Shown: piece after piece, positions 1,115-64,000 of the stretch | Position numbering within the stretch: position 1 is the first letter of the stretch | Layout: each line of letters begins with the position of its first letter | Virus record (IMG/VR): IMGVR_UViG_3300027977_000009 | DNA length: 64,000 nucleotides | DNA from: a virus | Direction: 5' to 3' (one strand) | Made by a program: the position numbers and the translations under genes | The notes under the pieces: generated by a model | Databases searched by the model: none | Told to the model about the DNA's origin: nothing | The model's input: the letters and a program-made list of their open reading frames with translations, nothing else

Positions 1115-1136
1115 CAACAATAAGAGGAAAAACAAC

Positions 1137-5440: not shown

Positions 5441-6025
5441 TTATCGAGAAACAAGAACCTTATCCGCTAGTCCAAACTCGACAGATGCTTGAGCGTCCAT
5501 ATAGTTGTCACGTGCCATAGCAATCTTAAGTTCTTCGACGGTCTTGCCAGTATTAGTTGCATAAATCTCAGTGAGAAGATTATTCAATCGAACCATTTCT
5601 TCCATTTGAATTTCAGCGTCCCATATCGTGCCACGAGAACCGCCGGACACAGAGTGCACCATGTGGCGAGCCCTAGGAAGAATGAATCTCTTTCCTTTGG
5701 TGCCGGAACTTGCTAGAAGTGATCCCATTGAACAGACACTTCCGATTGCGATAGTAGAAATGTCTGACTTGACAAATTGCATAGCATCAAGAATAGCTAA
5801 TCCAGCAGTCACCGAACCACCTGGGCTGTTGATGTAAAGTGAGATGTCGGCGGAGGGATTTTCTGATTCAAGATAGAGCAATTGCGCAACGATGAGATTA
5901 GCCATATAATCATTGACTTCCCCCTCTAAAAGAATCACCCGGTCCTTTAGTAATCGACTGTAGATATCCATTACTCTTTCGCCACGACTGGACTGTTCGA
6001 TTACCATTGGAACTAAGTTAGACAT
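5441..6025 (-). CDS. clpP: ATP-dependent Clp protease proteolytic subunit
   Basis: [24 protein letters not shown] (catalytic Ser), MVH, RDNYM. Confidence 0.95.
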
Positions 6026-6112
6026 ATTTTTTTTACCTTCATTGTTAATGTAAGTGTATGTTACTTCATCGCAACCACAATGTCAATGACTTTGGGATAA
6101 ACAAAAGTGTTA

Positions 6113-7660
6113 TTACTTTCGTAATGAACGTCCAACATTTCCCATAGTAGATATGCGCTTTTCTTTTGGCTTTTTTCTACCAAGGGCAATGTCGGCTGCT
6201 TGTTTGGTAAACTCAGATGAAGTGGGAATACGCTTTTCTCTACCTATCTCGGCATCTATAATAGGTTGATCTTTGGCTACGCCCTTGCCGCTGTCGATCT
6301 TAAATGTGAAGTTTCCCTTGATGCCTGTACTGTAATATGTCTTGCTTGCCGAAAGATAAACACCCTTGATACTATCACCTGGGTAGACTGTGTTGAATTC
6401 GTCAAGAGTCCATTGACCTTTGCTTTCTTTAGCTTTAGTATAAACCTGAATCAACGCCCCTTGATTGAGGATGTCTGCCGCAGCTTTGCTGAAGTCAGTT
6501 TTCTCGTTGACTTCCTCTGCTGCTTTATGGGCTACAGCAGCAAGCAAGAGATAGTAAAAATTAACTTTGTCTCTATCCAATGATTTTCTGGTCTGTGCTA
6601 GCTTTAGCAGATTGTCAGATAACCCGAGATTATCTAATTCACTCATTGTCAAAGGACTATCATTCTTGAGTGATAATATCATCCTAGCATCTGTTTCATC
6701 GATGATGTCAAATTTCAGTCCCAAATAGATAGGCGCGAGTGCTTGGCCCCGACGTTTTATCTCGCGTATAATCTCAATCGTGTCAGCATATTTTTCACGT
6801 AATTTATTGCCCCCTTCAGTCTGAGATAATTCGTCAACGCTGTTGATTAGATTAGTCGTACTCGCAGTAGCTCCTTTGCCACCTTTAGTACTGACCTTGA
6901 TCGACTTGCCTTCATCACTGGTCATGATGCTATCGCTTAGTCCAGCAGTTTTCGTAGAATCAAACGAGATAAGGGTGTTTTTAAAATTTCCATTTAGAAA
7001 AATTTCAGCAGCTTCTCCTGCATTACCTTCGTATTGCCCCATCTGCAATGCGATCGGCTGCAATATCTCACAAAAATAATCTCTAAATGCAGAGAAGCTA
7101 AGATTCTCGGGTGCGTCAAACGTCATCGGAAGGGGTTCACCTGCTACTAATCGGTATGTAACGTCATATAATATATTATCGGTACCCAATTTCTCGGCCA
7201 ATTGCTTAAGGATGTCGTTAGCAGTCAAATCATTTTTATTTGTCAATAGATCCTGAGGGCTCAAGCCAGCTTGAGCCTTCTCAGCCGATTTGCTAGCTAA
7301 TTTATAGTCTCCTACTAAATTGGGAACATAGTTGTCTGTGAAATTTGGCTTGATCTGTTCTAGATATCTACCGAAATACAAAGGACCGTCTGTACCGGTG
7401 AACGTAGCGAGCGCAAATCCTCCCATTCTAATAGTGCGAGTATTCATCCATTGAATATTATGATCAGTCTGACTATTGATATCTAACAACACATGATCTA
7501 ATTGTTCAGGAGTATATCTTCCGATTTTTTCTGGAAAGAACTCAAGTTTGTCAAATATGATTTCTTCGCCGGCTGAATTACGAAATACAGCACCGGCTTT
7601 CCTACCAGCAAGGCCAGTACTTTCGGCTAGAGTTTCAATTTTATCAAGAAGATCACGCAT
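6113..7660 (-). CDS. Late hypothetical protein with CTS-like N-terminus; possible PD-(D/E)xK-like nuclease core
   Basis: TAAATA upstream; MRDLLDKIETLAE; E...SD...VSTK pattern is only weakly suggestive. Confidence 0.45.
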   Translation of the reverse strand: MRDLLDKIETLAESTGLAGRKAGAVFRNSAGEEIIFDKLEFFPEKIGRYTPEQLDHVLLDINSQTDHNIQWMNTRTIRMGGFALATFTGTDGPLYFGRYLEQIKPNFTDNYVPNLVGDYKLASKSAEKAQAGLSPQDLLTNKNDLTANDILKQLAEKLGTDNILYDVTYRLVAGEPLPMTFDAPENLSFSAFRDYFCEILQPIALQMGQYEGNAGEAAEIFLNGNFKNTLISFDSTKTAGLSDSIMTSDEGKSIKVSTKGGKGATASTTNLINSVDELSQTEGGNKLREKYADTIEIIREIKRRGQALAPIYLGLKFDIIDETDARMILSLKNDSPLTMSELDNLGLSDNLLKLAQTRKSLDRDKVNFYYLLLAAVAHKAAEEVNEKTDFSKAAADILNQGALIQVYTKAKESKGQWTLDEFNTVYPGDSIKGVYLSASKTYYSTGIKGNFTFKIDSGKGVAKDQPIIDAEIGREKRIPTSSEFTKQAADIALGRKKPKEKRISTMGNVGRSLRK

Positions 7661-7728
7661 GAAGTATTTATTCTAATCAAATATTAAACAATCATAAATA
7701 CTAGCAGAATATCAACAATAGGAGATTC

Positions 7729-7923
7729 ATGATGTTATTTTTGAAAAAGCTGCTAACTAAATTTACGGCTACTGTTGCTTCCGCAAAAGTTGAACCCGTA
7801 ACTGAAGTAAACGAGCCTGCAACAGTAGAAGAAGTAGAACCCGCGCAAGAAAAAACGAAAACTAAGAAAGCAACAGGTAAAAAAACAACCAGTCGTAAGC
7901 CAAAGTTAAACATAGCTAAATAA
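7729..7923 (+). CDS. Small Lys-rich hypothetical protein
   Basis: TAAATA promoter and AGGAG RBS upstream. Confidence 0.55.
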   Translation: MMLFLKKLLTKFTATVASAKVEPVTEVNEPATVEEVEPAQEKTKTKKATGKKTTSRKPKLNIAK

Positions 7924-7933
7924 AATATATTTT

Positions 7934-8632
7934 ATGCAAGACATTGGCTTTGACATAATAGGCGACCTGCATCTTGCGCCCGATGACCATTTTAATTGGG
8001 AAAACAAAGCGACCAGTTTGTATTGTATTATAGCAGGTAATGTTAGTTCTGATCTACGAACGATCATACAAACACTCTCTCATCTTAGCAGATTTTACCA
8101 AGGCGTGTTTTATGTTCCTGGTCCACTCGAATATGTTGATGCAGTCGATATTTCTACTAAAACAAAAGAACTTATTGCTATTGCAGGTAGTATTCCTAAT
8201 ATCTGTTTGTTGCATCAACAAGTAGCTATTATTGATGGTATTGCCTTGCTAGGCTCGAATGGCTGGGCCGATTCGGGAGACACATCAACGATCGGAGAAA
8301 CAGTAAGAACGGTAGCCAGAGACGAAGATATGTTCTATCTTCGCAAGTCGATTGAAAAACTGCAAAAACACTTAGATGTCAAAAACATAATAGTGATATC
8401 GAATGCGGTACCGTTGGAAGAACTTTATTTTGGTGAGGCTCCTCACCAAATGAATGATCAAATACCTCTTAAAGAGGTACTAGGTAGCGATACTGAACAT
8501 AAAGTCACTCACTGGGTATTTGGTACTTACCGCAAAACTGTTGATACCTATATCAATGATATCAACTTTGTCAATAATCCTTATTTAAGTAAGAATCCCT
8601 ATTGGGCAAAAAGAATCACATTAGTTGTGTGA
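7934..8632 (+). CDS. Calcineurin-like metallophosphoesterase-fold protein (degenerate motifs)
   Basis: IIGDLH, IAGNV, YVPG, WVFG and NNP at the expected motif positions. Confidence 0.65.
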   Translation: MQDIGFDIIGDLHLAPDDHFNWENKATSLYCIIAGNVSSDLRTIIQTLSHLSRFYQGVFYVPGPLEYVDAVDISTKTKELIAIAGSIPNICLLHQQVAIIDGIALLGSNGWADSGDTSTIGETVRTVARDEDMFYLRKSIEKLQKHLDVKNIIVISNAVPLEELYFGEAPHQMNDQIPLKEVLGSDTEHKVTHWVFGTYRKTVDTYINDINFVNNPYLSKNPYWAKRITLVV

Positions 8633-8680
8633 GTCATCATGAAAGAGGCATTCTGTCGCTACAACAAATCTATAAGAATT

Positions 8681-8711
8681 TGCGGCTCTGAATTTTAGAC
8701 TCAGAGCCGCA
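8681..8711. terminator. Bidirectional hairpin terminator
   Basis: TGCGGCTCTGA...TCAGAGCCGCA between convergent genes. Confidence 0.7.
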
Positions 8712-8716
8712 ATATA

Positions 8717-9025
8717 CTAACTGTCGGCTTCAACCTTAACTTGAAGCGGATACCCTTGGGCACGAGCATCAAGCGTAACTTCAATGCCGCGCTGTTCCGC
8801 AATCTCATAAGGTAGAACAGCAACGATTGCACTGCCCTTTTCATGTATTTCAGTCGTGATGTGACTAGCAGTATCTGGGTTATAATTGAAATAGTCTATC
8901 AGTGACCCGACCACAAATTCCATCGAGGTCACCTCATCGTTGATGTAGATGATCCTAAAAAGCGGCGGCTCCTTTAAGGCAATATTAGGCTTGATCTTGC
9001 TACGGGTATCTGTGTTCGCTGACAT
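8717..9025 (-). CDS. clpS: Clp protease adaptor ClpS
   Basis: PPLFRIIYINDEVTSMEFVV, IHEKGSA, GYPLQVKVE. Confidence 0.92.
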   Translation of the reverse strand: MSANTDTRSKIKPNIALKEPPLFRIIYINDEVTSMEFVVGSLIDYFNYNPDTASHITTEIHEKGSAIVAVLPYEIAEQRGIEVTLDARAQGYPLQVKVEADS

Positions 9026-9043
9026 TATTATCTTCCTTTAAAT

Positions 9044-9070
9044 GTGCTAGCAGTCAATGACTGCTAGCAC
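9044..9070. terminator. Hairpin (terminator or processing site) between hsp20 and clpS
   Basis: GTGCTAGCAGTCA-A-TGACTGCTAGCAC inverted repeat. Confidence 0.55.
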
Positions 9071-9089
9071 GGTTGTTGTGTGTAGTATA

Positions 9090-9548
9090 TTATTTCTGCT
9101 GTATAGGTATATTCTTTGGTTTTTGCTCTTCAGGTATTTCACGCTTCAAGTTTATATTGAGGATGCCGTGTTCTGCTTCCGCACTTATCACTTCAACATG
9201 TTCTGCAATCGTAAAAGTACGAACAAAGTTACGCGCCGAAATACCCCGGTGCAAGTATTCAGTTTCTTTTTCTAAATCATCTAGGGGTTGACGTTGCTCG
9301 CCCTTGATTGTAAGAATTTTCTTCTCTAGCGTGATGGAAACATCTTCTGGCGTAAATCCTGCAATAGCTAGCGCGATAGAAAAGTGATCTTCATCGTGCT
9401 TTATGATATTATATGGAGGGTAGTTGGGAGCATTTGCTTGTTGTGCATTGATTCGCGATAGTTCATCAAAGATGTTATCAAATCCAATTCCAAATTTATG
9501 CAAGTTCGGAATATCCAAAGAACGAAGGGTTAGTTGTGAATTAGTCAT
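9090..9548 (-). CDS. ibpA: Small heat-shock protein Hsp20 (IbpA family)
   Basis: NYPPYNI, LAIAGF, YLHRGISARNFVRTF, C-terminal IPI motif. Confidence 0.93.
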   Translation of the reverse strand: MTNSQLTLRSLDIPNLHKFGIGFDNIFDELSRINAQQANAPNYPPYNIIKHDEDHFSIALAIAGFTPEDVSITLEKKILTIKGEQRQPLDDLEKETEYLHRGISARNFVRTFTIAEHVEVISAEAEHGILNINLKREIPEEQKPKNIPIQQK

Positions 9549-9613
9549 ATTATTTCTCCTTTAAGCAAATAATGACAGTAGAGCCTTTAAAAGCACCCTA
9601 CTGTGTTATTTAT
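9549..9613 (-). promoter_or_regulatory. Late promoter plus ROSE-like RNA thermometer leader
   Basis: TATAAATA, 5' hairpin, then AUUAUUU-G-CUU paired with GAGAAAUAAU over the SD, with UUGCU motif and bulged G. Confidence 0.6.
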
Positions 9614-9668
9614 ACAAGAAATTTCGGTAGTTGTAAAGTATTTTGGGTCAAGTTATTTGCTTTTCGAG

Positions 9669-10886
9669 TCAAACACCAGTTTTAGGTAAAAGATATTTTG
9701 CTATTACTAAACTAGGATCCTTGATGTGTTCAGTAGTGATTATTAATTCAGTGACCCCGTGTTCTCTAAACTTGCTAACGTGGAACATCGCTGGCATCAA
9801 TACTCGCTCTATCTCAGTATGAAGACCACGCGCCCCAACGTTTAACTCTATACACCGCTGCGCAAGCTGTGCTATAGCTTCGTCAGTGAAAGACAATTTA
9901 ATGTTGTCTATCTTAAATAGATGCGTGAATTGGTCGATAAAATTGTTTTTTACTGAGGTCAGTACCAAAATCAATTCGTCTACTGTAAGTTCGTTCAATG
10001 CAACAGTCGTAGTGAATCTGCCGATAAATTCAGGAATCATTCCAAATTTGATCAGATCATCTGGAGTGACAGCACTACTTTTCTTATCCTTAGTCTTTAT
10101 ATTTTGCACGAACCCGATCGAAGCACCCTGAATTCTATTTTTGATTATAAGATCAAGGCCCGTAAAGGCGCCTCCGGCAATAAAGAGAATATTTTTAGTG
10201 TCGACCTCAATCATATCTCCTTGTGGATTCTTGCGTTTGCCGGTTACTGGCACACGGCACGTCGTCCCTTCGATCATCTTCAATAGTGCTTGCTGAACGC
10301 CTTCTCCGCTTACGTCGCGCGTAACAGAAGCATTTTCACTTTTACGTGACACCTTGTCAATCTCATCTATGAAGACGATACCTCTCTCTGCTAATGCAAC
10401 ATCACCGCCTGCACTAGCCAAGAGCATACTAATCATACTTTCTACGTCTTCGCCAACATACCCTGATTCAGTTAAACTAGTCGCGTCAGCAACCACGAAC
10501 GGAACACTTAGATACTTCGCAACTGCTCGGGCGATCAAGGTCTTGCCGGATCCTGTAGGACCAACAAGCAATACATTTCCTTTTCGAATCTCTAGGTCGG
10601 TTGACGGATATGTGATTCTTTTATAATGATTAGCTATAGCAACTGCCAACACTTCTTTAGCAGCGTCTTGGCCAATAACATGTTGATCTAAATGTTTCTT
10701 AATACTATATGCATCAAAACTTTCAGGTTCAGCGGCTACTGGTTCCTCTGCTTGCTCGTTGATAACAAGTTGGTTACATAATGCAATGCAATCGCTGCAT
10801 ATAGCCGCGTCGTCGCCCACAATCAATTTAGTTACATTGTCTTTGTGCGTCCCGCAGAAAGAACAATACTGAAGTTTATCTGGCAT
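9669..10886 (-). CDS. clpX: ATP-dependent Clp protease ATP-binding subunit ClpX
   Basis: CSFC..C..C zinc domain, GPTGSGKT, GYVGED, DEIDK, RDVSGEGVQQALLK, IGF loop. Confidence 0.95.
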   Translation of the reverse strand: MPDKLQYCSFCGTHKDNVTKLIVGDDAAICSDCIALCNQLVINEQAEEPVAAEPESFDAYSIKKHLDQHVIGQDAAKEVLAVAIANHYKRITYPSTDLEIRKGNVLLVGPTGSGKTLIARAVAKYLSVPFVVADATSLTESGYVGEDVESMISMLLASAGGDVALAERGIVFIDEIDKVSRKSENASVTRDVSGEGVQQALLKMIEGTTCRVPVTGKRKNPQGDMIEVDTKNILFIAGGAFTGLDLIIKNRIQGASIGFVQNIKTKDKKSSAVTPDDLIKFGMIPEFIGRFTTTVALNELTVDELILVLTSVKNNFIDQFTHLFKIDNIKLSFTDEAIAQLAQRCIELNVGARGLHTEIERVLMPAMFHVSKFREHGVTELIITTEHIKDPSLVIAKYLLPKTGV

Positions 10887-10919
10887 TATTTTACTCTACT
10901 CTTTGATGACTGAAACTGC

Positions 10920-12500
10920 CTAGGTATCTTTTTTGATGTATTCTTCTATTTGTAACTTTTCGTTTTCGGTCAGCAAGTCAACATCATATTCGCCTCGTTC
11001 GATTTGGGCAATAAGGTGTTTTATATAAGCATCATCATACAAATAAGAATCAGATTGTTCTTTGTTAATTTCTATCCATTTATAGCTATCAAACTTATAA
11101 ACACGATTCGGTAACATATCTACACGCACAAACACGTCTCCTTTTTGTGCAATCTTGGGAAACTGTGTTCCAAAATTAGTATTGATAGGATGATCTATAT
11201 CCGCAACAATGGCAAATAAATCAGGGCGCATCGTCTTTAGTGCTGCTGTACTCATAGATTTTCCGTCATATTCTACATAGTCACCACCGGTAGACCGTAA
11301 AGTTACCCCTTCAGTCTTGATGCTGGGTTCTGCTAGTCTATGTCGTTTTTCAGTTTCGTTTTTAGGCTCACCCAATCGTTCCACATCTTTACCTGAGACG
11401 GCCAAAGATGTTTCGTCAGGCTCTTCTCTAATTGGTTCATCGAAATCAACAGGTAGCGCTTCATTGCGCTCTGGTATAGGTTTAGCATCATTGTATGCAT
11501 CCTCTGCATAAGGGAAAATATCGTTTATAATTAATACCGGCTCTGGTATTAATTCTATCTCGGTTGTTTTTAGAAGTTCGTGTTCTAGTGATTCCGTTTT
11601 TTCTTCCTTCGGAACAACATCCTCCTGAACTTTAGGTTTAGACTGTTCTGCGGATGGCAAAACTTCTATACTATCTGTGGATTTATCTTCATTTTGATTT
11701 TTTGCTAAATCTTCATTTAACCATTTATAGCTGCTCTGTGCAGCTACCATAAGTGCAAGCGCCAGTGGATCAAACACTAGTACGAGAAGAATGATAACCC
11801 AACGTACCGCGCGTTCTAATAAATTAGTATCTGGGTCGTCACCGTATATCATTGCGGCGATGTACTTGATCGGACCTATTTCGGCCTCAACTTTGCGAAT
11901 CTCGGCACGAATGGGCGCAACTTCTTCGTTAAGTTTTGCTATTTCAGCTTGTTCAGCTTCTATCTCTTGTATTAATCGATTGCGTTCGGTGGCTTGTTGC
12001 CTACGAACCTGAATCGCACGATTAGCACCCCTGTCATCGTCGGTTCTACCCAATAACTGATCAACCTGACTGTTCATTTGCTCAAGAGCCTTTTGGCTCA
12101 TGGCAATGTTTTCGCGCGAAATCTTGATCTTTTCATCAACTAGCTCAACTTTAGCAGCGGTGTCGCCACTTACTAAAGTCTGGTCACTGTGAGCCTTTGC
12201 CAAATATCCATATGTCCCCATAGAGGTGATTAGCATCAATGACACAACTGCCAGCACTAGATACGATTTCAGCGCCCATCCGGCTTTGGTCCAGTATTTG
12301 TGAAGCCATACCACCGCCGTGATTTTACCTAACTCTAATGCACTTCCCATAACCATCACTGGCACTGCTGCCGCTGAAAAGATGACGGCCAAACCAGTGA
12401 TGGAATAGAAAGCACTAATTGCGGAAATAAACAGGGCAACTAGCAGTACGATGGCATTAAATATCATTTGTGTTTTCCCTGCTGGAGCAACGATATCCAA
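10920..12500 (-). CDS. Multi-pass membrane protein with coiled coil and acidic linker
   Basis: N-terminal TM helices, heptad region, further TM; start probably the ATG of MIFNAI. Confidence 0.6.
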   Translation of the reverse strand: MDIVAPAGKTQMIFNAIVLLVALFISAISAFYSITGLAVIFSAAAVPVMVMGSALELGKITAVVWLHKYWTKAGWALKSYLVLAVVSLMLITSMGTYGYLAKAHSDQTLVSGDTAAKVELVDEKIKISRENIAMSQKALEQMNSQVDQLLGRTDDDRGANRAIQVRRQQATERNRLIQEIEAEQAEIAKLNEEVAPIRAEIRKVEAEIGPIKYIAAMIYGDDPDTNLLERAVRWVIILLVLVFDPLALALMVAAQSSYKWLNEDLAKNQNEDKSTDSIEVLPSAEQSKPKVQEDVVPKEEKTESLEHELLKTTEIELIPEPVLIINDIFPYAEDAYNDAKPIPERNEALPVDFDEPIREEPDETSLAVSGKDVERLGEPKNETEKRHRLAEPSIKTEGVTLRSTGGDYVEYDGKSMSTAALKTMRPDLFAIVADIDHPINTNFGTQFPKIAQKGDVFVRVDMLPNRVYKFDSYKWIEINKEQSDSYLYDDAYIKHLIAQIERGEYDVDLLTENEKLQIEEYIKKDT

Positions 12501-13051: not shown

Positions 13052-14014
13052 TCACTTGTCATATCGAAATGATTTAAATCTAGGAAAACGTAGACTATAA
13101 GTGCCGTTTTGATTAAGAGTTATCGCATCTGCCATAATTACCACCGATCGCCCGATCAGATCGTTTCGGTTATCCCAATATTCTTGTCGTTCAGCATCAG
13201 TAAACCCGCTACCCACATTGACTACAATGTGTTTTCCGTCGTCCATTCCTTCACAGACCAATGCTCCCATTCTGTCCTTGTTCTTTCCGGTACCGGATTC
13301 CACACCGATTACAGTGAGGTCGTAATCATGCACGGGCTTGTACTTCATCCAGGCGGTGTTACGCTTACATTCATACGAGGTCGCAAGATCCTTGATCATG
13401 ATGCCCTCAAATCCAGCAGTAACCATATCTTTTGCATAACGATCAAGCTGATTTCTGCCCTCGAGTGTAGTAAGATCAACAAGTAGATGTGGAAGTAATT
13501 CTAGGTTGGACATCTTGTCAATGGCAGACTTCATTGCGTCAAGCAATGCGAGACGTTTGGTCAGGGATGCGTTCCAGTATCCCCTGCTAAAATCAAGAAT
13601 AGGAATAATGTCAAATACGTGAAACACACTGTCCTCGCTCGCAACATTTTCTTTACGACGAGCCTGGCGCATCAGTTCTTGAAAACTATTACCCACAACT
13701 TCACCATCAAGCACAAATCCAAGAGTTAGGTCTGCCCCAAGGCCTCCTACCTCATGCCTAGCAGCAATCATTTCAGGTAAGTTATCAAGTACTTGTTTTT
13801 CGATGTGGTTAAAGTTTTCAAATACCTTACCATTACGGCTATAGCATGTGACATGTGCCCCGCTGTCAAGAACTTGCACTACTAGTAGAACACGGCAGTT
13901 GTGGACTAGCACCCCATTTGCAAAAAAGTTTTCGGTATTCTTTACTTGTATGTCATACCGTGCCATTTTGGTTGGAGGTAGTTTTTTAATACTTTTGATT
14001 TTTAGGGTGGTCAT
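13052..14014 (-). CDS. lig: ATP-dependent DNA ligase C-terminal fragment preceded by 39-aa C-intein
   Basis: YDIQVKNTENFFANGVLVHN|C then SRNGK, LDGEV, FDI, EGIMIK, WMKYK, VGSGF, LRFPRF. Confidence 0.92.
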   Translation of the reverse strand: MTTLKIKSIKKLPPTKMARYDIQVKNTENFFANGVLVHNCRVLLVVQVLDSGAHVTCYSRNGKVFENFNHIEKQVLDNLPEMIAARHEVGGLGADLTLGFVLDGEVVGNSFQELMRQARRKENVASEDSVFHVFDIIPILDFSRGYWNASLTKRLALLDAMKSAIDKMSNLELLPHLLVDLTTLEGRNQLDRYAKDMVTAGFEGIMIKDLATSYECKRNTAWMKYKPVHDYDLTVIGVESGTGKNKDRMGALVCEGMDDGKHIVVNVGSGFTDAERQEYWDNRNDLIGRSVVIMADAITLNQNGTYSLRFPRFKSFRYDK

Positions 14015-14865
14015 GTCAATCTTTCAGTTAGCATTAGTTTGATGTCTTCAAAGTGATATTTGATATCATATTCCCAAATTACAATTATGTCAACCCCAAA
14101 ATAGCGGATATGGTTATTTCGTATTTCATCACCTAACCAGACCTCAGCGGCCGTACACGGACCGTCAAAAAACACGACAACATCAGACTCGTGGTATATT
14201 CTTGGATTCATGTGCCATCTATCACCGAATATTTCTATTACGACATTTTTATCAGGAATAAAAATATCAGGGATAGGTGAATACGTTCTTTTTAACTCGT
14301 CATTAAATTTTCTAAATAGACCAGCTTTGTCATTGTCGTGTTCTATAGTCAGAGTATGTAGGAAATCTGATATTTTTTTGTGAGGTTTAGAGAATCTCCC
14401 ATTGTTTTTGGTATACTATGGCAGTTCAACTGGGTTAAGAACTCCGTATTTTTTATATAGGGTTTCTTTTGATTTTTGCTTTACTTCTTCTCGTTGAAAC
14501 GGATTTATTACTCCATACCTATCTAAGTTTGTATTATTTTTCTTTTCTTTGATTAGTTTGGATTGAGATACATTGGTTATTCCATGACCATATGTTTTTT
14601 CTACAGTAGACTTATACAAATCTCGTGTTATTCTACTGTTTGCAGTATCTTTTAAACTGGGTATTTTAATACCGTGGTGCTTGCAGGTTGTAGATATCAT
14701 GTCATATGATATTTTCTCTCCGAATAAGGTCAACGAATTCTTGGATAGGTACAAGATAGAATATCCTGCTAGTATCATATCACTGATCTTATCCTTATAC
14801 TGTTCACCTATTAGGTGATAGTCAATGTTCCTCACTATTTTTCCACATATATGACATACCGGCAT
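14011..14865 (-). pseudogene. Vsr-like (EDxHD-type) homing endonuclease with one in-frame TAG at 14416-14418
   Basis: ORFs 14416-14865 and 14011-14211 are in frame; past the TAG the frame reads PDIFIPDKNVVIEIFGDRWHMNP. Confidence 0.8.
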
Positions 14866-14913
14866 AATAATCTCCTATAATAGTTATTTATGCCTGTAGC
14901 AGAAATTAGATGG

Positions 14914-15738
14914 TTAAATGTGCTCTAATAATTCATCATTGTCAGTTAGCAAGTCTACTCTACGATAGCATTTTAACTTAGGAAGATAGACCAAATGATT
15001 ACCCGTTAGCGGTGGCAAAGTTTTACCGTTCTCTAATGTTATCTCGTACCATTCATAATCATCGACCGAGTCATCAATTCCGTCCACCGCCCAGCCGGTA
15101 ATTTCGTTAAATTCGACCTTACCGGTAATCATATTGTATGATTTGACCTTACCTGCTAATTTGTTGTCAACTACTTCCTTGATTGTGACTTTACTGCCAT
15201 CTTCAAACTCAACTACCCAATCTGAACTTAAACAGCCATCAAGTTTAGGTTCGAGACGTTTGATACCGGTCATCTCGGGTCTGCCTTCAGAATTGGTTGC
15301 CAGTTGACACCCAAAAACTGAAATTTCGTACTCTGTCTTTTTGCAAACTTTGTTGATTGTGGTTGACGATATGCCACAGCGTATGTCGCGCCGCAAAACG
15401 GGAGCAAGAAAAGTATTCCACTCGTCACTGTCGAATCGGTCTGCCATTGTTTGGATAGCGTCACGTGCATCATGTCCGGTGAGTTCACGAGTGCCGAGCT
15501 TTACAGTAAGATCGCCAAACTCGTCCCAAGGGTTTTCTGCATCAGTAATTCCAAAAGTTTCTGGTATCTGTCTTACCCCAAACACGATGTATGGATCATA
15601 ACAAAGCTTCAGCATATTAAGAAAAAACTTAGCAGTTGTGTTGCCAAGTAATGCTGCTGTTAGCGCCTGACTGATAATGTGTTCTTTGTGAATGCGAGAA
15701 TCGCTACTGTTGAGTGCGTTAATCCACGATGCCGACAT
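14914..15738 (-). CDS. lig: ATP-dependent DNA ligase N-terminal fragment followed by 106-aa N-intein
   Basis: EPKLDG adenylation motif followed by CLSSDWVVEFEDG (block A) and LTGNH (block B). Confidence 0.92.
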   Translation of the reverse strand: MSASWINALNSSDSRIHKEHIISQALTAALLGNTTAKFFLNMLKLCYDPYIVFGVRQIPETFGITDAENPWDEFGDLTVKLGTRELTGHDARDAIQTMADRFDSDEWNTFLAPVLRRDIRCGISSTTINKVCKKTEYEISVFGCQLATNSEGRPEMTGIKRLEPKLDGCLSSDWVVEFEDGSKVTIKEVVDNKLAGKVKSYNMITGKVEFNEITGWAVDGIDDSVDDYEWYEITLENGKTLPPLTGNHLVYLPKLKCYRRVDLLTDNDELLEHI

Positions 15739-38619: not shown

Positions 38620-39603
38620 TTAACCGAAACTGAACAGATCACTGAATGTACTGTTAGTGTTAGTATCTGTTCTGATATCCCAGTCAAGTACACCTAATAG
38701 GTTATCGATTTTCTCATCGACTAGCTTACGTTCCATTTCATTATCATCAAAAGGAAGTTCAAGGAACCATTGTGGTAGCCTAAGCTCATCAGTTGGATAT
38801 GCAATCGAAGTCAACCCTAATGGATTTGATTTGAGAGTACACACAACAACCTTCATACCATCTACGATCTTCTGACTATACTGGTCACCGTTCATCTTAC
38901 GCAAGTAGTTATAATTGATAGCAGCTTTCGCATGTCCAACACTACACTGACCGGTCTTCTCATACTTGATCGTATGTTTAGTAAGATTGTTAACTGACTT
39001 AGGAGAACCTTTAGTCCAACTATCTTGTTCAGAAAGCCAAGTCTTGAATTCTCTGATCTTAGTGATAACTTCGGCGCGAGGAACGCCACCCAATACCTGC
39101 TCAAGTACTTCCATCAAGAACGTCTGAACATACTTAGGAGTATCTGCTCGTTTCAAGTCAAGACCCATAGCCTTGATCTCACCCATCTTACCATTCACAT
39201 CTTTACGCTTGCCTTCTTTATCAAAGATATTGATTGCATAACGCTTCTTTGTGATGAATAGAGTACGATCCCCGATCAGTTCACGACCAGCTTTGATGAT
39301 CTCACCGTTCTTGCGGGGACAATGAAATGCCTTCTCCATGAAGCCTGGAAAACTATCGTTTGCGATATCAGCAATATTATCGTATAATTGGATGCATACT
39401 TCCTTGTTCCATTCAATCTCACCCTTATCGATCTGTGGTTTGATCGCGTGATATGCACTGAAATAACAGCTATCAGTGTTATGAACTAGGATATCATTTG
39501 CAAAGAAAAACGGATCACTATCTACAATACTCAAGTCGTATACATAGTCATCAACTTCACCAAGACATTCTACCTTTTTTATTTTTGTCCACTCTGCATC
39601 CAT
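38620..39603 (-). CDS. polB: Family B DNA polymerase C-terminal fragment preceded by 42-aa C-intein
   Basis: VYDLSI...FFANDILVHN|TDSCYF, KKRYA, MGLDLKRADTP; C-terminal DLFSFG clamp motif. Confidence 0.93.
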   Translation of the reverse strand: MDAEWTKIKKVECLGEVDDYVYDLSIVDSDPFFFANDILVHNTDSCYFSAYHAIKPQIDKGEIEWNKEVCIQLYDNIADIANDSFPGFMEKAFHCPRKNGEIIKAGRELIGDRTLFITKKRYAINIFDKEGKRKDVNGKMGEIKAMGLDLKRADTPKYVQTFLMEVLEQVLGGVPRAEVITKIREFKTWLSEQDSWTKGSPKSVNNLTKHTIKYEKTGQCSVGHAKAAINYNYLRKMNGDQYSQKIVDGMKVVVCTLKSNPLGLTSIAYPTDELRLPQWFLELPFDDNEMERKLVDEKIDNLLGVLDWDIRTDTNTNSTFSDLFSFG

Positions 39604-40541
39604 GCTTTCACCTTATTAATTGTATTTTGTTTATCTAATTTAAATTCAGATTCCCACACCGTATACGTGCGAAACCCAAGATCAGTTGCTGTCTTCAATT
39701 TTTTACTATCATATTCTTGAATCTCTAATGCAGTACGACCCCGAATAACTGCATCATTTTTATATAAAGACGGATTCGCATGCCAGTAATCACCGTTAAA
39801 TTCAATTATACAGTCTTTGTGTTTTATATCGTATATCACATATGTTCCTAAGAAAGAAGACCATCTTCCGTAGGGTCTAGTAAACGTAGTATACTCTAAT
39901 GATCCATAATTGTCAATCAGCATGGTCGTAAATTCTTTTTCTATGTTGGAACCCCAAATATTACCGGGATATACTACCCGGTTTAAAATTAGTGTGACCG
40001 CTTCATCAAGGGATATTCCCAATTTAGTTGCTACTAATTGCGGATTAAATGAGCTACCTTTTTCGATATTTAACTGTAGAAATCTAGACGTACCCTCTTC
40101 AGTTCCATACTTGTTAACGAAATAGGTTTTACTATTGGTGTATGCTTGTCGTTCACAATACGCTAGCCACTTAGTAGTACCTAACTTTTCCCCATGACGG
40201 GCAATCATTTTTTCTAAGGTCTGTGCCCTAGACGAATTATACTCATTATACTGTTCAACTGTCCATCCGTGTTTTTTACGTTTGTACTCAAATGAATTAG
40301 AATCCGCTTGTTTAACTTTGTATTGGTTCCATCGAATCGTACCCTCTTCTATCCCATACTTTTCAATCAATCTCTCTTTTGTAATAGCCGTTTTTGCGGC
40401 AACATCCGCTGATACTAACACGGCTTGAGGATATGCCAACTTGTATTCTTTGGAATTAGAAAATTTACCTGTGCAGTTATACTTAAAATGAGTCCACTGT
40501 AGTCTACTAGTTTCCATTCCACATTCTAAACACTTTATCAT
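39579..40541 (-). CDS. Vsr-like homing endonuclease between split-intein halves
   Basis: CLEC..H; KYGxEEG repeats; YDI...IIEFNGDYWHANP...VWESE. Confidence 0.85.
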   Translation of the reverse strand: MIKCLECGMETSRLQWTHFKYNCTGKFSNSKEYKLAYPQAVLVSADVAAKTAITKERLIEKYGIEEGTIRWNQYKVKQADSNSFEYKRKKHGWTVEQYNEYNSSRAQTLEKMIARHGEKLGTTKWLAYCERQAYTNSKTYFVNKYGTEEGTSRFLQLNIEKGSSFNPQLVATKLGISLDEAVTLILNRVVYPGNIWGSNIEKEFTTMLIDNYGSLEYTTFTRPYGRWSSFLGTYVIYDIKHKDCIIEFNGDYWHANPSLYKNDAVIRGRTALEIQEYDSKKLKTATDLGFRTYTVWESEFKLDKQNTINKVKAWMQSGQK

Positions 40542-40574
40542 ATGCTGATACTCCTATCAGCATATATTTATGCG

Positions 40575-42773
40575 TTATGGCACAAAAGTAATAATTCCAT
40601 CAGTTTCAAGAATTTCATTAGGTTTACATTCTACTAAGAATCCATCCCGATCGACCATTATACTATGATCTTCAGTGACAGTTACCTGTTTCCCGTTCTC
40701 TGTTGTGATTTTATAAAGTTTTTTCCTAGTTTTATGTCGCATAACGTAACTAATTTTTGCCCCAGTAGGTTGCATATCATGTGAATTAAATCCAAGCACA
40801 GTGGAATCATTCCATACTCCATACTCTTTTTCACCCACAACTGAATGCTCAATGCACTCATCAAAAAGTTGCGCTATTGTTTTATCACCATCGGTTGTTC
40901 TAATAATAGAATCACCAGTAACACTGTCACCGTATACGATTGCATCACCGTCATGTTGATATTTTTCGGTGATAGTCTCGTTGATCTGACTCATCATGTG
41001 CTTTACGATCTGTCTACCGGACAACGTAACTGACTGCCCGATACGCTTATCATAGAACCTACAATGCTCATTGAGAAGCGCGCCGTATGCAGAGTTAAGC
41101 AAAATCTTACGAACAAGCTGTCGCTTGTCATAATATTCGTACATATCAGTGCCATACGCTTCTTTAGCTTGCTTCTGAAGTATTTTACGTTCAGAATACC
41201 AACGTGAGAGCAATCCGGGAATAATGCCTTCTTTCTCATAGGTAAAGATGGTCCCGTTCGCCGATAGCATATAAGGCTTGTGACTATCAAAAATCATCTT
41301 CCAAATTTCAGCAGCAGACATCTCTTTTGATCGACCATCTTCATAATCGATGGTGAGCATAGTGCCGCGTTCTTGGTTCATGATAGCGGTATATTCTAAT
41401 GAACCGAATAGGTTTTCCCAAAGAATAGCACCAATCACAGCTTCTGCATCGTCGCCGTTCTTTTTCTTACGCTTTTCTTTAGCAAGAGCAATACTCTTTT
41501 CATGCATATACTGATCAGTAAGTGTTTGACGAACCTGCCCGATAATAGTTTCTGGAGCCATGTTAAGGGCTCTGATGGCAGAGGGGTAGAGTGAGTTGAT
41601 ATCAACTGCGCCGACGTATTCGTGAATCCCCGTCTTCGGTACAGCAACATATGCACCTGCTGCTTGTTGTCCGTCACTAAACGAATCCCTACGCTTCTTG
41701 TCAGGGACGATAAATCCTCGTTCATGTGCTTCATTATAAACTGCCATTTCAATCATGGCCACCGAACCCATAACAGTTGGTAGCAGTACTGTGTTTTCAT
41801 GCGCTAGTGCATTCGCAAGATCAAGAAATTTGAGTTTGTTGTGGATCTTGAATACAAGCATAGTGTCTTGCCTGTTGTATTCTACGAAAGTTTTGAAGTC
41901 TCGGTTGTACAATTGATCCAGTGTGCCCTCATACTGAGTCTTGCGCTCGCCTAGTTCATATTCACCGATAGCATCGAGTGAATAACTATGTCGTGACTCG
42001 TAGTTATACTTCTTATACAATTGAAGATAGTCCATATGAATTCTACCAACTAGATCATAGGTCTGTTCTTCTTTACCGAATCTCTCGTATGTGCGAGTCT
42101 TTGGTAGTTGTCCCATGAGGCAGAACTTGCGAGTATCATCTTTAGACATCACACGAGTAATACGATTTACCATATATGGAATGTCGTATCCTTCTGAGTT
42201 CCAACCAGTCAATACATCTGCATCTTCGATCAGATCAAAAAATGTCTCGAACATTTCTATCTCACTGCGATATAGGAAAGTGTTCGGGAAATCTTTGATC
42301 AGTTCTTGGGCAGTCTCATCCGTCATGTGTTTCGGTGGAATAACTAACGTAACAAGCTGATCCAACCAATCTAGATAACAACTGATCGCTGTTACTGGAT
42401 TGAATGGATCTGAAGTTGGACTGAAACCCTTTTCAGGATCAAAGTCCACTTCAATATCGAAGAAACAAGTGTGAAGCTTTGGAGGTTCTGCTCTTAGGTA
42501 GTTTTCAGACAAACATCTGAAAATTACGTTGACATCACTTTCGAAAAGCTTTTTATTAGAATGAATCCTGCGCTCTTTTTCGAACTCACTGCGTTTACGG
42601 CTAGAGAAGCGAGTTACAGGATCACCGTAGATAGAGCGATGCTTCCCTTTAGGATCCTGGTAATAAAGAACATAATTGGTATGATATTCTTTATACGCTC
42701 GTTTCCCGTCGGCGCCCCGCTCAACTACACGAATGCGGTCAGAATTGCTATCTAATATCGCATCAATATACAT
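40575..42773 (-). CDS. polB: Family B DNA polymerase N-terminal fragment followed by 116-aa N-intein
   Basis: FDIEV, GWNSEGYD, DINSLYPS, KILLNSAYG, YGD|SVTGDS (block A), VTEDHS (block B). Confidence 0.95.
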   Translation of the reverse strand: MYIDAILDSNSDRIRVVERGADGKRAYKEYHTNYVLYYQDPKGKHRSIYGDPVTRFSSRKRSEFEKERRIHSNKKLFESDVNVIFRCLSENYLRAEPPKLHTCFFDIEVDFDPEKGFSPTSDPFNPVTAISCYLDWLDQLVTLVIPPKHMTDETAQELIKDFPNTFLYRSEIEMFETFFDLIEDADVLTGWNSEGYDIPYMVNRITRVMSKDDTRKFCLMGQLPKTRTYERFGKEEQTYDLVGRIHMDYLQLYKKYNYESRHSYSLDAIGEYELGERKTQYEGTLDQLYNRDFKTFVEYNRQDTMLVFKIHNKLKFLDLANALAHENTVLLPTVMGSVAMIEMAVYNEAHERGFIVPDKKRRDSFSDGQQAAGAYVAVPKTGIHEYVGAVDINSLYPSAIRALNMAPETIIGQVRQTLTDQYMHEKSIALAKEKRKKKNGDDAEAVIGAILWENLFGSLEYTAIMNQERGTMLTIDYEDGRSKEMSAAEIWKMIFDSHKPYMLSANGTIFTYEKEGIIPGLLSRWYSERKILQKQAKEAYGTDMYEYYDKRQLVRKILLNSAYGALLNEHCRFYDKRIGQSVTLSGRQIVKHMMSQINETITEKYQHDGDAIVYGDSVTGDSIIRTTDGDKTIAQLFDECIEHSVVGEKEYGVWNDSTVLGFNSHDMQPTGAKISYVMRHKTRKKLYKITTENGKQVTVTEDHSIMVDRDGFLVECKPNEILETDGIITFVP

Positions 42774-61062: not shown

Positions 61063-61680
61063 TTAGGATGATTTCTTTTCTAATTTGTAGGTTTTACCAA
61101 TGACATTGGGAAACATCAGATGAATGTAGGTTAACATAGCTGGGTCGTTATAATCAATATAGTAATGATCATAAATCCAAATGTATTTGTATCCCCAACT
61201 GCTTAGGGGATACAAACATCGAAGAAAAGGATGATTCGGGCGTAACCCATCAGTTCGTTCTAGATATTCTACAAACGCTGGCCTAAACTCAGCTTCTACC
61301 CTTTTTGTCTTAAGATAGGACCTAAACTTAGCAGGAGGAGTATTCTTAAATAGTTTTACGCCATGTGTCACAATAGCTTCAGTTATGGGGCCGGCATTAG
61401 CCAGTAATTGAAATTGCTCAACCAGTGCTAAATCGTTGCTAAAGAAGGTGATACGGTCCCCTTCTAGCCTGAACTTATTATTCTCTCGATGCAAAGCAAG
61501 GAATATACTGATTTTTTCCCGATCAGTATATGATGTTGTATGCATCTCTGGCAGACTGATGAGGTTTCCCAGCTGTATACTTTCTTGACCTCTGGGTGTC
61601 CGTACACTAACTCTATACTTAAATTTATTGTAGTAAAGGATAGTCCGATCTTCAGCTTTGAATTTCAATGATGCCGTCAT
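61063..61680 (-). CDS. Hypothetical protein
   Basis: Start MTASLK with AGGA RBS inside clpA 3' end. Confidence 0.55.
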   Translation of the reverse strand: MTASLKFKAEDRTILYYNKFKYRVSVRTPRGQESIQLGNLISLPEMHTTSYTDREKISIFLALHRENNKFRLEGDRITFFSNDLALVEQFQLLANAGPITEAIVTHGVKLFKNTPPAKFRSYLKTKRVEAEFRPAFVEYLERTDGLRPNHPFLRCLYPLSSWGYKYIWIYDHYYIDYNDPAMLTYIHLMFPNVIGKTYKLEKKSS

Positions 61681-62860
61681 GGCCAATCCTTGCGTTTTGC
61701 TTTTGAGTAATTTGGAAAACAATCTCGTCATTTTCTAAAACTGCCATGATACTTGAATTCGCAATGCGCTCAAAGAGAATCTTCTTTGAGAGGGGAACGC
61801 GAATCAGTTCATCGATCTTGCGAGCGAGCGGGCGGGCTCCCATCTTACTATCGTATCCTTTAGCAGCTAGGTAGTCAACTACCGATTCGCTCAAATTAAG
61901 AGTGATATTGTGCTTTTCGAGCAAGGGCTTCTTGACCTCGTCGAGGAACTTGATAACGATCTTCTTGATAGCAAGCGTATCCAACTTGTTGAACTTACAA
62001 ATCATATCAAGACGATTGCGGAACTCAGGTTTGAAGAACTGCTTGAGTGCTTTCTCGTCTTCATCGGTTTTTTCTAACATACCGAAGCCAATGTTATTAC
62101 GCTCATTGTCTGCTGAACCAAGATTAGAGGTCATAATAATAATAGTGTTCTTGCATGAGACTTCCTTACCGTTAGAACCGGTGATGCGTCCCTCATCCAA
62201 AATCTGCAAGAAGATGTTGAAGATATCGGGGTGAGCCTTTTCAACTTCGTCGAATAGCATAATCGAATGAGGGTTCTTGCTCAAGTCTGAAATCAAACGT
62301 CCACCCTGCACCTGTGAATCGCTGAAGCCTACATATCCCGGGGGAGGACCAATCAAGCCACTTACGCTGTGCTTCTCTCCGTATTCCGACATGTCATACT
62401 TGAGAAGCGGCATCTCCAAATTCTTAGAGAGCAGCTTAGCAAGCTCAGTATTATGATGAATAAAACCATTTGAAGTTTGATACAGGTGAGAATCCGATAC
62501 TACACTAAGATCATAAAATAACGTATCGTCAATTGGAACAACATCCAGAACAGAAACCTCGGACCCATTTTGCTTGCAAATTATATCTCCAGTCTGCAAT
62601 GAATCAAAATACAGACATTCCTCACCATCGTGAATTAGGTGTTTATCGGCAGCAGAAATCGTGTCTCCTGAATCAAAGGTTATTTTTCTACCCGTAGTTT
62701 CTTTGGTAATAGCAGCATTCACTTCTACCCAATTGTCATTCTCATCTTTGATTTGAATTTCGGAGTTTAAAAATTGCTCATGTTCAGGTACGAATGTGGT
62801 CTTTTCATAAAGACTAATGAGGTTGAAGAGTTTTGCGATAGGTAGAGTGATTTCTTTCAT
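61652..62860 (-). CDS. clpA: ClpA-type ATPase C-terminal fragment preceded by a 137-aa C-intein
   Basis: FYDLSV...SNGFIHHN|TELAK; DMSEY, LIGPPPGYVG, FDEVEKAH, TSNLG, IGF loop, PEFRNRLD, MGARPL. Confidence 0.9.
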   Translation of the reverse strand: MKEITLPIAKLFNLISLYEKTTFVPEHEQFLNSEIQIKDENDNWVEVNAAITKETTGRKITFDSGDTISAADKHLIHDGEECLYFDSLQTGDIICKQNGSEVSVLDVVPIDDTLFYDLSVVSDSHLYQTSNGFIHHNTELAKLLSKNLEMPLLKYDMSEYGEKHSVSGLIGPPPGYVGFSDSQVQGGRLISDLSKNPHSIMLFDEVEKAHPDIFNIFLQILDEGRITGSNGKEVSCKNTIIIMTSNLGSADNERNNIGFGMLEKTDEDEKALKQFFKPEFRNRLDMICKFNKLDTLAIKKIVIKFLDEVKKPLLEKHNITLNLSESVVDYLAAKGYDSKMGARPLARKIDELIRVPLSKKILFERIANSSIMAVLENDEIVFQITQKQNARIGHDGIIEIQS

Positions 62861-62986
62861 ATAATTCCCTTTGTGTTAGTGACAGTGTATTTAATATAAT
62901 ACTATAATACTGTGTTTTTCATAAAAAGTAAAGCTGTTTGTTGATTTTCTTGCCCAAATGATAAATAAACATAGGAGCAACATGTT

Positions 62987-64000
62987 ATGGCAAGACGTTT
63001 AGAAACAAGACTCGAAGGCAGCAAGCCCTTTAAGGACAGAATCGGAAGACCATTAATTTCCGTTGAAATTGAAAGATTATATGAATTTCATCATAGAGTA
63101 GGCTACACTCCGGACAGGATACATGCGATAGTCCAATTTATTTTATTAGGATACGATGATTGGAGTAGTATTTGGAATAAATTAAAGACCTTGCACAACG
63201 GTACATTAGAATACCAAACTCTACTTTACGGAGATGTTATGGGCAAAACCAAATATTTGGAACTTAACAAGAAAAAAACTAAAGGATTTGACCATTCGTC
63301 TGATGCTCAAAGAGAGAAGGGAAAAAAATCAGCCAAGCTATCAAAAGGAAATAAAGAATGGAGTGTGCGCGGGTTGGGGTATTGGATCAAAAAAGGATAC
63401 ACAAAAGACGAATCATTAGAGAAAGTGAAGGCAATACAAATAACTAATTGCTTAGATAGATACATAAAAAAATACGGTATTGATGAGGGGACCCAAAAGT
63501 TTAATGATAGGAAGAATACTTGGAAAAAAACGATGAACTCTTCGATTATTGGCAAAAAAAGAAGTCTGGGACTATGGAGATACGTAGAAAGATACGGTGA
63601 AGCTGAAGGAGAGAAAAAATATATCGAAATGCGTATTAAAAGAAATTCTAAATGCAGTATAGGAAGAGCGTCTGCCGAGTCGCTAGATGCACTTTCCCCA
63701 ATCATACGTATCTTAGATCAAAATGGTATTAATTACTATATAGGAATAGAAGGAAATAAAGAATGGTTCATATTCAATAAAAAAGAAAAAAAGATGTTTT
63801 TCTATGATTTAACTATACCTTCATTGGGGATAATAGTAGAATATCACGGTGAGGGATTTCATCCTAATCCAAACTGGGAAGAGAAGATGCTAACTGAGTG
63901 GAGACAAGTTAGAACAGGAAAAGGCGCTAAAGAAGTGATGGACTATACTAAAATGAAAAATCTTACTGCAATAGAAAACAGATGGACCGTATTTGAAATC
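62987..64000 (+). CDS. Vsr-like homing endonuclease (3' partial), inverted within the fractured clpA locus
   Basis: Frame read manually from ATG 62987 (AGGAG RBS, TAAATA); KYGIDEG/RYGEAEG repeats; FYDLTI...IVEYHGEGFHPNP; missing from ORF track because no stop in window. Confidence 0.85.
   Translation, partial: MARRLETRLEGSKPFKDRIGRPLISVEIERLYEFHHRVGYTPDRIHAIVQFILLGYDDWSSIWNKLKTLHNGTLEYQTLLYGDVMGKTKYLELNKKKTKGFDHSSDAQREKGKKSAKLSKGNKEWSVRGLGYWIKKGYTKDESLEKVKAIQITNCLDRYIKKYGIDEGTQKFNDRKNTWKKTMNSSIIGKKRSLGLWRYVERYGEAEGEKKYIEMRIKRNSKCSIGRASAESLDALSPIIRILDQNGINYYIGIEGNKEWFIFNKKEKKMFFYDLTIPSLGIIVEYHGEGFHPNPNWEEKMLTEWRQVRTGKGAKEVMDYTKMKNLTAIENRWTVFEI

Follow-up and report, generated by a model that had tools for sequence, protein, structure and literature searches.

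Can a phage obtain a functional ClpA unfoldase from a gene that is interrupted inside one of its own ATP-binding loops? This question is raised by the last kilobases of a 64,000-nucleotide stretch of viral DNA (IMG/VR record IMGVR_UViG_3300027977_000009; "the window" below means this whole stretch), where the second half of a clpA gene begins with 137 codons foreign to ClpA and lies next to a gene on the opposite strand. An earlier note, made from the letters alone, had read this arrangement as a split intein with an inverted endonuclease. From sequence comparisons, structural models and related loci, we conclude, with a probability of roughly 88%, that the phage clpA gene is fractured by an atypically split intein with an inverted nuclease gene, and that its two halves would be rejoined by trans-splicing.

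The half of clpA that lies inside the window is an open reading frame (ORF) of 402 amino acids on the minus strand (61652-62860), hereafter the C-gene. Its ATG is the first start codon to follow two in-frame stops, which precede it by 5 and 10 codons, and an AAGGGA sequence is found 8 nucleotides to its 5' side. Residues 138-402 match the Pfam domains AAA_2 (E = 1e-42) and ClpB_D2-small (E = 3e-20) and constitute the C-extein (61652..62449, minus strand, 265 amino acids), which comprises the second ATPase domain (D2) of ClpA from the Thr of its Walker A motif (TELAK...) to the stop codon, including the D2-small domain and an IGF loop for ClpP docking that can be read directly in the sequence as NNIGFG. 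The C-extein is 98% identical to the C-terminal part of an uninterrupted 725-amino-acid ClpA in another IMG/VR record (L001), with 752 of 798 nucleotides identical. Residues 1-137 (62450..62860, minus strand) instead carry the motifs of a class 1 intein C-fragment: ISAADKH with His74 (block B), FYDLSV...H with Asp117 and His125 (block F), and HHN with His136-Asn137 (block G), followed by a Thr at the +1 position. They contain no Cys1 and no block A.

Comparison with uninterrupted genes defines the insertion point. The 80 IMG/VR matches to the C-gene cover only residues 138-401, and all of them begin at residue 138, the first of the extein. L001, the closest of these relatives, reads GPTGTGK|TELAK within a single ORF, while at the window junction ...HHN is followed by ACT GAG CTT, encoding TEL; the 137 foreign residues therefore lie exactly between the Lys and the Thr of the D2 Walker A motif, precisely where the earlier note had placed the junction (GK|T, then TELAK). 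Across the insertion site, 66 intein-free IMG/VR loci read GPTGTGKTELAK, and the intein-free DNA of the L001 type is GGTAAA|ACAGAATTG. Insertion between the Lys and the Thr of a P-loop, GK|T, has been described as the "classic" P-loop intein site by Kelley et al. (PMC5050341). Divergence from L001 is mosaic along the C-extein (window 61652-62449 versus L001 10001-10798), with 4 synonymous changes in the first 9 nucleotides past the junction, 3 in nucleotides 10-296 and 39 in nucleotides 297-798. This pattern suggests a recombination boundary about 300 nucleotides from the insertion site and would fit recent recombination around it, but it is no more than suggestive because the junction codons recur in other intein-free alleles. 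For the same reason, the idea that the 4 synonymous changes at the junction confer immunity to a nuclease is only suggestive.

Are the 137 residues truly part of an intein? In 17 homologues of 36-77% identity, His74, Tyr116, Asp117, His125-Thr129, Asn131, His136 and Asn137 are invariant, which bears out the earlier description of 62450-62860 as intein sequence with blocks B, F and G and without block A. A profile built from three sequences (the window's and two copies from a relative, L081, described below) found its best PDB match in CatC (6dsl_B, E = 3e-5), the C-terminal piece of Cat, a consensus atypically split intein, and its next best in the Pho RadA intein (E = 5e-4). The AlphaFold2 model of the 137 residues is of high confidence (predicted local distance difference test score (pLDDT) 94, predicted template modeling score (pTM) 0.84), and its 47 Foldseek matches with E ≤ 1e-3 are without exception inteins or HINT/intein-like domains related to them. 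Superposition by VIA-align yielded Z scores of 15.9-11.4, including 15.9 to 7qss, 15.7 to 4e2t_B (root-mean-square deviation (rmsd) 2.0, 135 residues aligned) and 13.8 to Npu DnaE; among Foldseek's 1000 best chains, 74 reached a Z of at least 8, and the 50 entries listed comprise only inteins and other HINT domains. In these superpositions, residue 1 of the model aligns to residue 11-14 of full inteins (RadA 14-172, Npu DnaE 11-137, gp41-1 11-125), so that the fold lacks only the first 10-13 residues, the strand that bears Cys1, and the head helix of the model falls on α1 of ordinary inteins. The HINT fold, the block B His, the block F Asp and His, and the block G His-Asn with Thr+1 are all features of class 1 inteins. 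Judged by sequence and by model together, the 137 residues are an intein C-fragment, with a match far above chance.

The missing strand should reside on the first half of the gene, and the earlier note had predicted a minus-strand clpA N-gene ending in GxGK, a Cys, Ser or Ala, and a short tail. With the N-extein of L001 as query against 5.8 billion proteins, the search returned, among thousands of full-length ClpA sequences, a 488-amino-acid protein (P0003) that ends in this way; it was found as a protein and not on the window's own DNA. P0003 is 97% identical to L001 over all 460 residues of the N-extein, contains no D2 Pfam domains, has TIGR02639 (ClpA) as its best family (E = 7.5e-136), and terminates in GPTGTGK + CLAGEQEVTVKITDDMYNFAVKNGLISV + stop, that is, in a 28-amino-acid N-fragment starting with Cys1 (CLAGEQ...). 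Together, the N-extein (460 amino acids) and the C-extein (265 amino acids) amount to 725 amino acids, the size of the L001 ORF. An exact-sequence look-up located P0003 on 9 contigs and the C-gene protein of the window on 10 (JGI, Logan and ENA), the longest contig being 152,413 bp in both cases, which strongly suggests that the two genes lie on one and the same contig.

The intein is thereby divided between two genes into 28 and 137 amino acids, an atypical split; natural atypical N-fragments measure about 15-37 amino acids (PMC13014065). The earlier expectation that the N-intein would be little more than block A holds structurally, given the alignment of the C-fragment from residue 11-14 onward, but the N-fragment is 28 amino acids long and includes a conserved helical tail. 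PDB sequence searches with the 28-residue N-fragment and with a three-sequence N-fragment profile gave chance matches only.

Over the N-gene and C-gene together, all parts of a ClpA are present (Clp_N, D1, D2, D2-small and an IGF/IGL ClpP-docking loop), and the uninterrupted relatives of 725-755 amino acids carry the JGI name ClpA. In the lineage of the window (L001 at 8621, and P0003), the clpA ORF begins at TTG and is without the roughly 30 N-terminal residues seen in L002 and others (MQPSPEIENI...). A ClpX, with zinc finger, AAA_2 and D2-small domains, is also encoded in the window (9669-10886, minus strand), and the fractured ClpA would therefore be part of a phage-borne Clp system.

Both halves of such a gene, with a Cys1 fragment directly after the N-extein, occur on one contig in three relatives (L081, L090 and L092). 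Their N-fragments are 24, 26, 26 and 42 amino acids long and share the pattern C-L-x-x-[DES]-[EQ]-x-[VIL], followed by a later [ST]D[DE][ML]Y. The most elaborate case is L081, where clpA (5782-11173, plus strand) is divided into three pieces by related inteins, one at each Walker A motif (GEPGCGK|C...T and GKTGVGK|C...T); their N-fragments have 24 and 26 amino acids, and an opposite-strand nuclease gene occupies each gap. The two C-fragments of L081, at the D1 and D2 Walker A motifs, are 37-39% identical, and its first nuclease gene, which may be in decay, is split between two ORFs (7086-7436 and 6475-7089). In L092, the N-gene ends in GPSGVGK+C... and is followed by an inverted ORF (8615-9418, minus strand, 267 amino acids), which is unrelated to the nuclease described below and belongs to no Pfam or PHROG family, and then by the C-gene; a resemblance of the N-terminus of this ORF to GIY-YIG nucleases, seen by eye, was dropped for want of support in Pfam or PHROGs. 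L090 represents a nuclease-free split, in which an N-gene ending in GPTGTGK plus a 26-amino-acid fragment is separated by 113 nucleotides (gap at 1126-1240) from the ATG of the C-fragment; this gap has no nuclease gene and contains a hairpin of 9 perfect base pairs (AATAAGCAC...GTGCTTATT) as well as the ribosome-binding site TAGGAG. Finally, L088 is a short contig of 2.7 kb with an inverted nuclease gene and a C-gene whose C-extein (750-1987, plus strand) is divided between two ORFs that overlap (750-1673 and 1646-1987), owing to either a frameshift or a sequencing error. The intervening gene is inverted in all five nuclease-bearing loci (the window, both copies in L081, L088 and L092).

These relatives also bear on whether the locus is an artefact of assembly, a chimeric contig in which unrelated pieces were joined to a truncated clpA. 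The window does come from an uncultured, metagenome-like source; the same layout nevertheless recurs independently on five contigs (the window's and those of L081, L088, L090 and L092), and the identical C-gene protein recurs on the 10 contigs from JGI, Logan and ENA, so that an assembly error is very nearly out of the question.

What, then, is the gene that separates the two halves? As the earlier note stated, it lies on the strand opposite to clpA: the ORF at 62987..64000 is on the plus strand, with 338 amino acids visible before it runs off the window. Its family has 1556 representatives at E ≤ 1e-3, and full-length members are about 360-372 amino acids long; since they extend that much further, the window end removes some 20-25 amino acids. 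Among 44 aligned members, Glu285, Gly288, His292 and Lys324 never vary, and conservation is at least 90% at Asp274, Trp305 and Asp321. Asp274, Glu285, His292 and Asp321 are spaced 11/7/29, compared to 11/7/28 in Vsr, where the corresponding positions are Asp51, position 62, His69 and Asp97; an invariant Glu at position 62 has been reported for the homing family (Dassa et al., PMC2677866), and the EDxHD motif is that of I-Bth0305I (PMC3239194). In the AlphaFold2 model (pLDDT 93.5), residues 1-245 are all-helical, the N-terminal region containing a repeated YG-x-EG helical module, and residues 227-338 superpose on Vsr (1cw0_A, Z 7.2, rmsd 2.5, 84 residues aligned; 1vsr, Z 7.0) and on the nuclease domain of I-Bth0305I (3r3p_A, Z 6.2, 73 of 97 residues aligned). 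The protein shares with I-Bth0305I (PMC3239194) the Vsr-like C-terminal domain, the Asp/Glu/His/Asp spacing and a long helical N-terminal region; it differs in having no significant sequence match to I-Bth0305I (3R3P), with a Z of 6.2 only, and in that its gene is antisense to the host gene. Sequence searches with the protein gave no match in the PDB, Pfam or NCBIfam and, among PHROGs, only one without a name; 3 of the 44 family members match DUF559. On the strength of its conserved residues and modeled fold, we assign the intervening gene to the free-standing homing endonucleases of the Vsr-like (EDxHD) type.

Several observations weigh against the interpretation of the locus as a split intein with a homing nuclease. 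Pfam detects no intein domain in residues 1-137, TIGR01443 (intein C-terminal region) stays below its cut-off (13.2 versus 15.6 bits), the Thr of block B is replaced by Ala in the window intein, and the α1 site has two candidate occupants, the tail helix of the N-fragment and the helix at the head of the C-fragment. For the nuclease, structural agreement is middling (Z 6-7), and Foldseek with the whole nuclease model finds nothing at E ≤ 1e-3. Pairing of the halves in the window's genome rests on the exact-sequence contig counts, the equal 152,413-bp contigs and the relatives, as the window DNA ends at 64000; scans of IMG/VR and of JGI metagenomes did not bring up the contig of the window itself. 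The silence of Pfam on the intein part, along with the broken nuclease gene of L081 and the broken C-extein of L088, could even be taken to mean that clpA is dead, a nuclease cassette having broken the gene, with intein remnants in decay and no functional ClpA. This we judge to be unlikely in the extreme: 17 sequences, some with as little as 36% identity, all retain the catalytic residues of the intein, and the exteins are undamaged, with 97-98% identity to an uninterrupted allele. The exact C-gene is present on 10 contigs from three sources, and both genes have clean starts, stops and ribosome-binding sites. Moreover, block G with Thr or Ser at +1 is found in 41 of 49 proteins of the wider intein family (all those matched by a motif search).

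We thus favor trans-splicing, and propose the following mechanism. A mobile cassette, consisting of an intein split after about 28 residues and the inverted Vsr-like nuclease gene, would have inserted between the Lys and the Thr of the D2 Walker A motif. Two proteins would result, one comprising the N-domain, D1, the start of D2 and the 28-amino-acid N-fragment, and the other the 137-amino-acid C-fragment and the rest of D2; the N-gene would end just past the window end, the C-gene being inside the window. The short N-fragment would dock into the nearly complete HINT fold of the C-fragment, whereupon Cys1, His74, Asp117, His136/Asn137 and Thr+1 could carry out class 1 trans-splicing. The product, with GPTGTGK-TELAK restored, would be a full-length ClpA that can bind ATP in D2 and dock ClpP via its IGF loop. 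The nuclease, for its part, most likely cuts intein-free clpA of co-infecting phages, so that repair would copy the cassette into them (homing).

An arrangement without splicing can also be envisaged, with the intein fragments holding the ClpA pieces together non-covalently. It has a precedent in the nuclease-fractured NrdA of phage Aeh1, an enzyme reported to be assembled by interaction domains (PMC3045599). In ClpA, the break falls inside the P-loop, and from what is known of AAA+ structures a 165-residue intein between its Lys and Thr should block nucleotide binding by D2. Furthermore, Cys1, His74, Asp117, His136, Asn137 and Thr+1 are conserved, and docking alone needs none of these residues. 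We therefore hold function of the unspliced halves to be highly improbable, and trans-splicing remains the reading that we adopt below.

The inversion of the nuclease gene raises the question of how the C-gene is transcribed, since with that orientation it probably needs a promoter of its own. Both genes have their ribosome-binding site in the divergent intergenic region (62861..62986, 126 nucleotides), the C-gene with AAGGGA and the nuclease gene with AGGAG, and this region also shows weak resemblances to promoters. The earlier note's assignment of a C-gene promoter to 62880-62930 is not supported: only two matches, each agreeing with sigma-70 at 9 of 12 positions, face the C-gene, the best match (11 of 12; 62879-62908, plus strand) faces the nuclease gene, and the total number of matches equals that in shuffled sequences. 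The region has no T4-type late motif (TATAAATA), and an alignment of four divergent intergenic regions revealed no common promoter.

How does the ClpA intein compare to known atypically split inteins? AceL-TerL, GOS-TerL and Cat likewise combine a short N-fragment (25, 37 and 30 amino acids, respectively) with a long C-fragment (104-115 amino acids), and AceL-TerL and Cat share Cys1 with the ClpA intein, whereas GOS-TerL has Ser1. In these three, the host is a terminase and the +1 residue a Cys; the ClpA intein has Thr at +1, and its C-fragment of 137 amino acids has a further head helix. Natural atypical split sites lie either after strand β2 (VidaL and PolB16; "S1") or after helix α1 (the AceL and GOS TerL inteins; "S2") (PMC13014065), and to judge from the sequence the ClpA split, after the helix that follows the first hairpin, resembles the S2 site. 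The ClpA C-fragment model also aligns to residues 20-141 of VidaL (6vgv, 16-amino-acid N-fragment; Z 14.6) and to residues 16-182 of PolB16 OarG (8cpn, 15-amino-acid N-fragment; Z 11.6). Because the model aligns over the C-fragments of these two inteins, the piece missing from the ClpA fold must be of the same size as in them, about 10-15 residues, yet the ClpA N-fragment has 28 amino acids, and its extra 15 or so residues, with the [ST]D[DE][ML]Y motif, have no counterpart in VidaL or PolB16. As regards the insertion point, the mycobacteriophage intein TerL1-a also occupies a GK|T site in a P-loop ATPase (PMC5050341), but the inteins there are contiguous and reside in terminases, in contrast to the split intein in an AAA+ unfoldase found here.

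The layout of the locus is equally distinct. The fractured genes described by Dassa et al. in 2009 consist of three ORFs on one strand, with a canonical split and an N-fragment of about 100 amino acids, in genes for gp41, IMPDH, DnaE, NrdA, NrdJ, ligase and terminase (PMC2677866). At the clpA loci, the intein is atypically split, with N-fragments of 24-42 amino acids, the host protein is a Clp unfoldase, and the nuclease gene lies on the opposite strand instead of the same strand, in 5 of 5 cases. The full fractured-gene layout can be read directly in L081 and L092; the window displays the C-gene and the nuclease gene, and its N-gene would lie just beyond position 64000.

The window itself offers two further fractured genes for comparison. 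The gene for a family-B DNA polymerase (PolB; 38620-42773, minus strand) has a classic Dassa-type layout: its N-terminal part ends in an Intein_splicing domain (40575-42773; residues 632-728, about 100 amino acids of intein), its C-gene encodes a C-fragment followed by the rest of PolB (38620-39603), and the ORF between them (39579-40541, 320 amino acids), which is Vsr-like, on the same strand and overlaps the C-gene by 25 nucleotides, encodes a distant relative of the clpA-locus nuclease (E = 5e-4). The gene for an ATP-dependent DNA ligase (13052-15738, minus strand) represents most of a second classic Dassa locus, by virtue of its two intein-bearing halves: an N-gene that ends in a Hint module (14914-15738) and a C-gene (13052-14014) that opens with about 40 amino acids from the C-terminal region of an intein and continues into the adenylation and OB domains of the ligase.

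Is ClpA an exceptional host for such an intein? In the literature that we searched, whose scope did not take in the primary papers on atypical inteins, no paper links a split intein to ClpA or to a nuclease gene on the opposite strand, and a megablast search against phage records gave no match. The earlier note's view of a protease ATPase as an unusual host agrees with this silence, but the case is not an isolated one, as the same intein family is present in many P-loop ATPases. A profile search among longer proteins yielded the 49 intein-bearing clusters of the family, 38 of which are ClpA pieces by their Pfam domains, in which the C-fragment occupies either the D2 or the D1 site (the latter in middle pieces of about 450 amino acids and in pieces of 676-693 amino acids with an uninterrupted D2). 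The same C-fragment precedes ClpX, RecA, DnaB-like, clamp-loader-like (PF13177), MoxR-like and unassigned proteins. In nearly all readable P-loops, the Thr or Ser at +1 is the residue that follows the Walker A Lys; in a MoxR-like protein, the intein stands before TGKS. With 66 uninterrupted loci set against the 49 intein-bearing clusters, the distribution is sporadic, which fits mobility.

Two members of the family are contiguous: P0308, a 919-amino-acid ClpA with the intein in D2, and P0315, a 583-amino-acid ClpX with the intein at Walker A. In both proteins, a segment like the N-fragment runs directly into the Met of the C-fragment, and since they join the two, the N-terminal tail and the C-terminal head must belong to one intein. 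P0315 has two consecutive helix-like segments (by motif) after the first hairpin, and the split forms break between these two. P0308 and P0315 could predate the split, as its ancestors, or have arisen by re-fusion once the nuclease gene had been lost; the family exists in contiguous, nuclease-free split and nuclease-bearing split forms.

These observations can be drawn into a broader picture that we put forward tentatively, at less than even odds. A single mobile lineage with a short front piece may target P-loop coding sequence and hop among the ATPases of large phages: ClpA at D1 and D2, ClpX, RecA/UvsX-like, DnaB-like, clamp-loader-like and MoxR-like proteins, and perhaps TerL. It would have preserved the contiguous form, the nuclease-free split and splits with at least two kinds of inverted nuclease cassette, along with a three-piece ClpA that would need two mutually orthogonal copies of the intein, and the helical tail of its N-fragment would be a docking element not found in known atypical inteins.

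The locus is real, with good support for a new host and a new layout of a rare kind of intein, and the P-loop intein family merits description in its own right. Natural inteins with a short N-fragment are few (AceL-TerL, GOS-TerL, VidaL and PolB16), and each has become a tool for labeling or semisynthesis, uses to which they lend themselves since peptide synthesis can supply the short piece. To these the present locus adds a member with Cys1, Thr+1 and a 28-amino-acid N-fragment, of which only about 13 residues seem to be needed to complete the fold, and its approximately 50 relatives could supply orthogonal pairs, including two within one gene (L081). For the phages themselves, fracturing by split inteins reaches beyond the genes of DNA metabolism and packaging, and a phage proteolysis motor would depend on trans-splicing in its ATP-binding loop. 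Because the inverted nuclease gene separates the halves transcriptionally, they probably need different promoters, which leaves room for control of timing. The long-standing question of how split inteins arise can be addressed directly with this family, whose members are contiguous, split without a nuclease gene, or split with one.

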